Source of the DNA: a virus
Taxonomy: Duplodnaviria; Heunggongvirae; Uroviricota; Caudoviricetes
Length of the DNA stretch: 5,235 bases
Virus record (IMG/VR): IMGVR_UViG_2548876958_000008
Reading direction: 5' to 3' (one strand)
Shown one piece after another: positions 3,166 through 3,351 of the stretch. Below the pieces are notes generated by a model. It was not told the DNA's origin and did no database searches. It was given only the letters and a program-made list of their open reading frames with translations. How positions within the stretch are numbered: position 1 is the stretch's first letter; each line of letters begins with the position of its first letter. Position numbers and translations under genes: made by a program.

Positions 3166-3351
3166 TTACTTAATTATGTAATTCATACCCGAACGCTCTG
3201 TTGACAGCCTTCTTCTGCAGGCTTCAATAACCCACGCTGAAAAGTTACCGGAACCTTTATGTTCAAGGGCGATATTGATCTGTTCAATCATGTGATTGGG
3301 GAAACGGATATTGCGGATTGTGGTTCTGCGGGTCCGGTTTTTCGATGACAT
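3166..3351 (-). CDS. Small DNA-binding-like protein, DUF3950/YlcI-like with predicted Arc/MetJ-type ribbon-helix-helix fold (61 aa)
   Basis: Minus-strand ORF with strong ribosome-binding site (AGAGGAAA) about 5 nt before ATG (reverse complement of 3349-3351). Translation MSSKNRTRRTTIRNIRFPNHMIEQINIALEHKGSGNFSAWVIEACRRRLSTERSGMNYIIK: an alternating polar/hydrophobic strand (TIRNIRF), helix, G-S-G-N-F-S turn, then helix (AWVIEACRRRL), which is the RHH pattern. The NFS / WVIE motif matches my recollection of DUF3950 (E. coli DLP12 YlcI family), which sits between lysis and terminase genes in lambdoid prophages. Confidence 0.6.
   Translation of the reverse strand: MSSKNRTRRTTIRNIRFPNHMIEQINIALEHKGSGNFSAWVIEACRRRLSTERSGMNYIIK

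Follow-up and report, generated by a model that had tools for sequence, protein, structure and literature searches.

Arc and Mnt of phage P22 (PDB 1par) are proteins of about 50–60 amino acids in which a basic arm is followed by a β-strand, a helix, a turn and a second helix, and the genes of both lie within the late region of their temperate phage. The window analyzed here (the whole 5,235-nucleotide stretch of IMGVR_UViG_2548876958_000008) encodes a protein of like size and predicted layout in a like place, and this protein belongs to the YlcI/YnfO (DUF3950) family. The family members of Escherichia coli K-12, YlcI of the defective DLP12 prophage and YnfO of Qin, are about 85% identical to it over residues 1–53 and are likewise encoded on the opposite strand between lysis and packaging genes. 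However, their C-terminal tails are unlike that of the window protein, and their right-hand neighbor is a lambda-type cos/Nu1-like region rather than the HNH-TerS-TerL genes of the window. In K-12, the ylcI transcript overlaps that of the convergent gene ybcW in at least 50% of RNA-seq samples (PMC12288877), which shows that ylcI is expressed from a cryptic prophage. Other homologs are found in phage satellites. Gram-negative PICIs have been described as essentially unidirectional, with no mention of a DUF3950 gene (PMC10111431), and their global repressor has been called unclear (PMC6092414). The literature searched contained no functional study of DUF3950, YlcI or YnfO, no characterization of the satellite DUF3950 genes and no report linking PICIs, AlpA and ribbon-helix-helix (RHH) proteins; DUF3950 is mentioned there without a function, as the first-pass annotation had supposed, and ynfO is still among the uncharacterized genes in a 2024 list.

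The window is late-region DNA from an E. coli O157:H7 lambdoid prophage; positions 2800–3800 are 99.9% identical to many O157:H7 chromosomes, and positions 1–5181 align at 99.87% to a prophage of strain 493/89. On the plus strand it encodes, in this order, a YdfR/DUF1327 fragment, lysozyme, a P22-Ant-N-type antirepressor, a 49-aa ORF, Rz with Rz1 embedded, a 74-aa ORF, a 46-aa hydrophobic ORF and, beyond the minus-strand YlcI/YnfO gene, an HNH endonuclease and the small and large terminases. According to the list of ORFs and translations, the minus-strand gene has 61 codons and an ATG start, and its product, MSSKNRTRRTTIRNIRFPNHMIEQINIALEHKGSGNFSAWVIEACRRRLSTERSGMNYIIK, matches Pfam PF13132 DUF3950 (E=8.7e-20; 70.8 bits, cut-off 25), NCBIfam NF041551 YlcI_YnfO_N (35.1, cut-off 30) and phrog_949 (E=2e-31). 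An identical gene is annotated in RefSeq as 'YlcI/YnfO family protein' (WP_001302977.1), and in a 99.9% identical O157:H7 prophage the RefSeq annotation shows it as the sole minus-strand CDS from the holin to the portal gene. The first-pass annotation, made from the letters alone, was thus right to call a DUF3950 member, with a strong ribosome-binding site (GAGG, 7 nt from the ATG), and to see in it the only credible minus-strand gene, as RefSeq annotates no other CDS on that strand of the stretch. Based on the HMM scores and on dN/dS values of 0.02–0.15 over codons 1–45, this is not a chance ORF, and the sequence comparisons confirm it as a real, strongly conserved prophage gene of the YlcI/YnfO family. 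It is common and already annotated, in a family that is functionally uncharacterized. Rfam gave no match over the whole window at E≤1, so no known sRNA accounts for the locus, and PADLOC gave no match for the gene. The coordinates of the gene and of the features in and around it are collected in Table 1.

Table 1. Features of the YlcI/YnfO gene and its borders, in window coordinates
Feature	Position	Strand	Basis
CDS of the 61-aa YlcI/YnfO (DUF3950) protein	3166..3351	-	ORF list; Pfam, NCBIfam, PHROG, RefSeq
Stop codon of the YlcI/YnfO gene	3166-3168	-	within CDS
Shine-Dalgarno GAGG, 7 nt 5′ of the ATG	3359-3362	-	read from sequence
Predicted DNA-reading β-strand, codons 11-18 (TIRNIRFP)	3298..3321	-	hhalign register against Arc; satellite covariation
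Predicted helix A, codons 19-32	3256..3297	-	AF2 model
Predicted helix B, codons 37-59, preceded by KGSGNFS turn	3175..3243	-	AF2 model; alignments
Conserved module, codons 1-45	3217..3351	-	sole part with lambda nucleotide homology; blastn
C-terminal tail, codons 46-61, hypervariable between prophages	3169..3216	-	120 close homologs; lambda homology ends at 3217
Divergent spacer to HNH (ATG at 3393), 41 bp	3352..3392	.	both ribosome-binding sites
Hairpin over the stop codon, GTAACTGTGTGTTC / GAACACCATGTTAC	3138..3170	.	repeat search; folding; terminator-like call on + strand

The extent of the conserved unit follows from a blastn comparison of the window with lambda, in which codons 1–45 are 82% identical at the nucleotide level and homology stops exactly at the ATG; neither flank is therefore part of this unit. 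Of the 24 differences over these codons 20 are synonymous and four non-synonymous, giving a dN/dS of 0.021 with synonymous sites nearly saturated. Other pairs gave values of 0.03–0.15, and the 0.29 of one nearly identical pair comes from two differences only. On this sequence evidence codons 1–45 are under strong purifying selection, and the conserved, selected unit appears to be the coding sequence of a domain of ~45–50 residues alone. Sequences of 120 close homologs show that within E. coli the first ~50 residues are nearly invariant and the tail after residue 50 varies by prophage, with a mosaic junction lying inside the 3′ end of the window gene. In two alignments of the DUF3950 family N36, F37, S38, W40, V41 and C45 are invariant or nearly so. 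C45 (3217–3219, in helix B) is the single cysteine of this small cytoplasmic protein and is invariant in both subfamilies; its role could be structural, or redox- or metal-related.

The family is small, with 103 representatives at 50% identity among 1.84 billion proteins. Its homolog set was freed of contaminants from lambda control DNA, which occurs in unrelated assemblies (Streptomyces, Pseudomonas, Cohnella, a spider and others; loci L017-L054, L066 and L073), and of frameshifted, noisy long reads of lambda DNA, which affect many 'ena' proteins (P0033-P0120). Because of this contamination and these frameshifted reads, the taxonomic range and diversity of DUF3950 look inflated. Once the lambda contaminants are removed the range is Enterobacterales, with three exceptions: a Pasteurellaceae-type isolate (Bisgaard taxon 46), a Gilliamella MAG and one unclassified gammaproteobacterial MAG. 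Within E. coli, 1464 of 5426 complete genomes have the 5′ part of ylcI, at 3483 places altogether; the median is two and the maximum seven per genome.

In every Escherichia/Shigella lambdoid prophage inspected, the gene stands alone on the opposite strand, with the lysis/moron region on one side of it and the packaging genes on the other. The packaging neighbors are of the lambda type (cos-Nu1-A) in lambda and in DLP12-like and Qin-like loci, and of the HK97 type (HNH-TerS-TerL) in the window, BP-4795, JLK-2012 and a prophage carrying a satellite (L003). The opposite orientation is seen in the O157 prophage, lambda, BP-4795, JLK-2012 and L003, and 59 of the 60 listed phage records have the gene on the minus strand. 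Lambda itself (NC_001416.1) contains an intact 64-aa DUF3950/YlcI ORF, complement(48109..48303), with the product MSTKNRTRRTTTRNIRFPNQ...SDEE; it lies 199 bp from the right cos end and is not annotated in the RefSeq record.

Both borders of the window gene had been described from the sequence before, and their geometry stands. The spacer to the HNH start is indeed 41 bp long, a spacing that recurs in BP-4795, JLK-2012 and the L003 prophage. It is too short for two promoters and holds two ribosome-binding sites only, and a promoter scan made no call between 3352 and 3925. The further proposal that gene and interval form a unit was not borne out, as no repeat or palindrome was found in the 41 bp and homology ends at the ATG. 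On its other side the gene does face the 46-aa hydrophobic ORF (2896–3036, plus strand) across a spacer, of 129 bp, in which folding gave two stable hairpins (~3075–3102 and 3138–3170; z = -4.05 and -3.82). The convergent transcripts probably have their 3′ end at the second hairpin. On sequence comparison this hairpin belongs to the variable flank, outside the conserved unit, since the segment 2742–3196 is absent from L003. The 46-aa ORF sits behind an AT-rich region (2750–2895) with a promoter-like match at 2778–2806, its peptide has no family match in Pfam, NCBIfam or PHROG, and copies of the ORF with ≥95% identity occur in 733 of 5426 E. coli genomes. It looks like a moron in its own right, coding for a small membrane peptide.

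Other parts of the window contain insertions or repeats. A gene for an antirepressor with a P22-Ant N-terminal domain (E=1e-45) and the overlapping 49-aa hydrophobic ORF (phrog_4906), together at 1101–1816, are inserted between the lysozyme gene and Rz, so that the lysis cassette is split. The HNH-terS spacer (3852–3977) contains four palindromic cores, ATGTTAAC/GTTAACAT, at 3856, 3924, 3947 and, inverted, 3966; two of the four copies lie exactly 23 bp apart, and the repeats create a promoter-like match on the minus strand at 3955–3926. These repeats are probably small-terminase (cosB-like) sites. The large-terminase gene is broken at 5181/5182 by a multicopy sequence (5182–5235) that occurs at 1707 places on chromosomes and plasmids and adjoins IS91-family transposase genes. 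The exact junction is found in no complete genome of the collection, and the prophage of the source strain is probably packaging-defective.

The AlphaFold2 model of the window protein, computed as a single chain from a 40-sequence alignment (mean pLDDT 72.8), has an extended N-terminus followed by helices at residues 19–32 and 37–59. Its first Foldseek match is the Arc repressor-operator complex, with a weak E-value of 0.87, followed by TCP, ParD2, ArtA, Reg576 and PrpA; nearly all top matches are RHH proteins, and all scores are weak. In hhalign, NIRFPNHMIEQ is placed on NLRWPREVLDL of Arc in the expected register (E=0.008, probability 5%), and the comparison with Mnt gave E=0.1. This register puts I12, N14 and R16 of the window protein on Gln9, Asn11 and Arg13 of Arc, the first two of which (opposite positions -3 and -1 relative to IRF) are base-contacting residues of Arc. 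Pfam RHH families gave no match to 40 DUF3950 members, apart from one HicB-like match at E=0.025, and searching the PDB by sequence, first with the protein and then with a profile of the family, brought no meaningful match. The order of elements read from the sequence in the first-pass annotation, a TIRNIRF strand, a helix, a GSGNFS turn and a second helix, agrees with the model. On structure and sequence alone the RHH assignment is thus consistent but not statistically secure, and an RHH DNA-binding fold is the best reading.

The strongest argument, from sequence, for DUF3950 as a family of DNA-binding regulators comes from the second setting of these genes, integrase-AlpA-primase phage satellites (PICI, cf-PICI and P4-like) across Enterobacterales. 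Of 39 informative loci outside Escherichia, 29 have int, alpA or antA on one side of the gene and/or a primase or capsid gene on the other, and these flanking genes are all on the opposite strand; an E. coli example lies between clpS and cspD in O157:H7, and a few family members are orphans in other islands. The ~130 bp upstream of the satellite genes have a fixed layout in 27 non-redundant loci. A pseudo-palindrome of 12–14 bp, typically GGTG-N6-CACC, is repeated, its second copy abuts an invariant GTCAA, and there follow a T-rich stretch, a conserved TGTATAGTGT block and the third copy. The first two copies (O1 and O2) are 23 bp apart, and the third follows O2 at 46–47 bp in most loci and at 24 bp in the GTTTAAAC class. 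Eye-inferred promoters in this region received no call in a consensus promoter scan.

The core of the repeats changes with the residues that precede the invariant IRF; for example, xYKG goes with GTGTTTAAACAC, TTKG with GGTGCAYAWACACC and AKKH with GGTGTGNACCCACC. Across the 27 loci, the sequence distance between the repeats of different loci correlates with the distance over the four residues that precede IRF (r=0.77; Mantel p ~2e-4), and position -1 or -3 alone, equivalent to Asn11 and Gln9 of Arc in the hhalign register, gives r=0.65 and r=0.66, respectively; the invariant arginine after the isoleucine corresponds to Arg13. The remainder of the protein gives r=0.06, helix A r=0.15 and helix B r=0.17. 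Mosaic transfer of operators together with 5′ codons could inflate these correlations, but non-operator DNA that is physically closer correlates much less (5′UTR, r=0.32; inter-repeat spacer, r=0.35). The first gene of the opposite operon, termed Icd-like in RefSeq and 'transcriptional repressor' in PHROGs, gives r=-0.06, against r=0.79 for the recognition residues in the same subset. Such covariation is the signature expected of an RHH protein acting on its own upstream operators. Because the repeats track the residues before IRF, and neither the rest of the protein nor the divergent neighbor, DUF3950 looks like a family of sequence-specific DNA binders. The measurement refers to the satellite homologs, a sister subfamily of the window protein.

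The satellites show several other features of note. A hairpin (GCCCGG..CCGGGC / GCCTCGA..TCGGGGC, followed by TTCGCTATTTT) is found at ~6838–6880 of L009 and at the aligned place in 21 other satellite loci. It shows compensatory changes, lies in the leader of the leftward Icd-like/primase operon, has no Rfam match and could be an attenuator or antitermination target. Rfam searches of eight satellite loci gave no match to C4/IsrK-type immunity RNAs. The L003 satellite (~90–8040), with int, an AlpA-like gene, two DUF3950 genes, primase, TerS and capsid, is inserted in terL of a prophage (8047–9730) that is 92% identical to the window, homology ending at window position 4882, and thus corresponds to the helper-embedded PICIs described in PMC10111431. 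A cos-like match of this satellite was considered as a link to the DUF3950 gene and set aside, as it lies by terS. Some satellites encode fusions of 120–129 aa in which DUF3950 is joined by a disordered linker to a TerS-type HTH (P0212, at L003 6001–6363; also P0200, P0219-P0221, P0223 and P0225). The HTH is modeled with pLDDT >90 and is 66% identical to residues 2–54 of the window TerS, and upstream of the fusions lie GTTTAACAC/GTTAACAC repeats resembling the ATGTTAAC repeats of the window. These fusions could be a device against helper packaging.

The phage-type genes were searched for operators of this kind. A satellite-style array of three phased 12–14 bp repeats in the ~130 bp upstream was found neither near the window gene nor near other phage-type copies, and the divergent Icd-like/primase operon is absent at the window gene, whose neighbors are HNH and lysis-region genes. 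The L003 satellite palindrome TGGTACGTACCA has no match in the window at up to three mismatches. Searches for GTG..CAC palindromes or repeats phased by 23/46 bp returned only the ATGTTAAC repeats and one 3′ hairpin palindrome in the window, nothing in the lambda, Qin-like and DLP12-like stretches, and one lone palindrome each in BP-4795 and JLK-2012, about 3 kb from the gene. Two other candidates were rejected: the 'ATCA...AC' motifs upstream of the lambda gene are irregularly spaced (21, 18, 37 and 36 bp), and the GGTGTTCA-AG match that flanks the window gene on either side is, by estimate, what chance would give. By homology to the satellite proteins, the window protein should bind DNA via residues 11–17 (TIRNIRF).

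We favor, with moderate confidence, the reading that the window gene encodes a small RHH DNA-binding regulator and is a stand-alone accessory gene of lambdoid prophages, probably expressed in the lysogen and acting at a site that is not adjacent to it. For the window protein itself we infer dimerization, in which the two helices would form the dimer core of a probably dimeric protein, and DNA binding, in which the basic N-terminal arm and the β-strand (residues about 5–17, ...RRTTIRNIRF) would read bases in the major groove. The gene lies at the boundary between the lysis/moron and packaging regions and is transcribed against the late operon, so expression is expected in the prophage state; it would be made mainly while the late operon is silent and be shut down by convergent late transcription. 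The protein would most likely act as a transcriptional repressor or regulator, and its target site would not be next to its gene.

Unlikely in our view, but the best placed of the alternatives, is that antisense transcription itself has been selected, as an excludon or an insulator that keeps moron read-through out of the packaging and head genes in the lysogen, with the protein being secondary. In phages and satellites alike the gene alone runs antisense within a long operon of otherwise uniform direction, the ybcW-ylcI pair of K-12 is a recurrent convergent transcript overlap (PMC12288877), and stable hairpins lie between the convergent genes of the window. The low dN/dS (0.02–0.15), with synonymous sites nearly saturated against lambda, points instead to selection on the protein sequence; moreover, the invariant residues are spread over the DUF3950 domain, and the repeat covariation points to a DNA-binding protein. 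An excludon role and a protein role are compatible with each other.

A slimmer prospect is a packaging accessory, a protein that aids DNA packaging either by binding to the cos region or as a partner of the small terminase (or HNH). Phage copies are always next to the packaging module, with 199 bp between the gene and cosN in lambda and 41 bp up to HNH-TerS-TerL in the window, some satellites fuse DUF3950 to an HTH with 66% identity to the window TerS over residues 2–54, and no phased (23-bp) repeats occur in the window other than the ATGTTAAC palindromes between HNH and terS. However, a gene antisense to the late transcript that makes the terminase is expected to be poorly expressed during packaging, and near-identical recognition residues (TTRN/TIRN-IRF) are found beside the unrelated lambda Nu1/A and HK97-like HNH/TerS systems. 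No cis site travels with the gene, since homology does not reach beyond the ATG, and the satellite gene lies next to int/alpA, kilobases from the satellite terS and cos-like match. Plasmids with only a short lambda cos fragment are packaged without the YlcI ORF in cis.

The absence of a target among the sites searched, of the gene from the RefSeq lambda annotation, and the mosaic 3′ end of the gene would suit a decaying remnant or hitch-hiker, for example a satellite fragment without function in the phage, but this is very improbable for an intact ORF with a good ribosome-binding site that recurs at 3483 places in 1464 of 5426 complete E. coli genomes and is under strong purifying selection over codons 1–45. 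The least probable reading, and one that the sequence comparisons largely refute, is the toxin-antitoxin-like moron proposed in the first-pass annotation, with YlcI as antitoxin or regulator of the 46-aa hydrophobic peptide: antitoxins often have RHH domains (the structural matches include ParD, CopG-type, MazE9 and VapB12) and the small hydrophobic ORF adjoins the gene, but the two are convergent and not co-transcribed, with no co-oriented neighbor; the ORF, at 784 places in 733 E. coli genomes against 3483 in 1464 for ylcI, can accompany at most 23% of ylcI copies; it is replaced by other genes beside ylcI in lambda, BP-4795 and JLK-2012; the segment 2742–3196 is missing from the 92% identical L003 prophage, which keeps ylcI-HNH-TerS; the C-terminal tail, the would-be toxin-binding part, is hypervariable; and the peptide has neither a family nor a PADLOC match. 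By the same comparisons the 46-aa ORF appears to be a separate insertion. Of that earlier interpretation the module is lost, as the gene occurs independently of its neighbors, and the RHH fold and regulator part survives.

By itself the window gene is an ordinary prophage ORF. It gains some interest because more than a quarter of complete E. coli genomes have a member of the family, frequently more than one, and because a member lies unannotated near the cos end of lambda, the best-studied phage. What is added to an uncharacterized family is a functional assignment by covariation and a link between phages and satellites, and the covariation gives this DUF a specific, testable biochemical prediction. 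If the satellite copies repress, they would fill a gap in the silencing of Gram-negative phage satellites, and the prophage copies would be candidates for phage-satellite cross-regulation.

Among the known systems compared, the satellite homologs have a DUF3950 domain that is 30–45% identical to that of the window protein, and they are also lone opposite-strand genes in a one-directional array. However, they have three phased cognate repeats upstream and are divergent from an Icd-like/primase operon, both of which the window gene lacks. The place of the satellite homologs, as divergent small regulators between the int and replication modules, is shared with the Stl/Rpr master repressors of Gram-positive PICIs, but the Stl/Rpr fold is unrelated to DUF3950, and this likeness is limited to the satellite homologs and does not extend to the window gene. 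With Arc the window protein shares the alignment of NIRFP to NLRWP, at a level of sequence similarity that is not significant. An immI-type Arc/Mnt-ant module as in P22 was considered for the window and rejected: the ant-like gene (1101–1670) is on the other strand, ~1.5 kb away, with Rz and further ORFs between, it is co-oriented with the lysis genes, and DUF3950 genes occur in phages without ant, such as lambda. Finally, the lysogen-expressed morons of the lambda bor type are likewise small accessory genes located 3′ of the lysis cassette and antisense to the late operon, but whereas Bor is an outer-membrane lipoprotein, the window protein is predicted to be cytoplasmic, basic and of a DNA-binding type.
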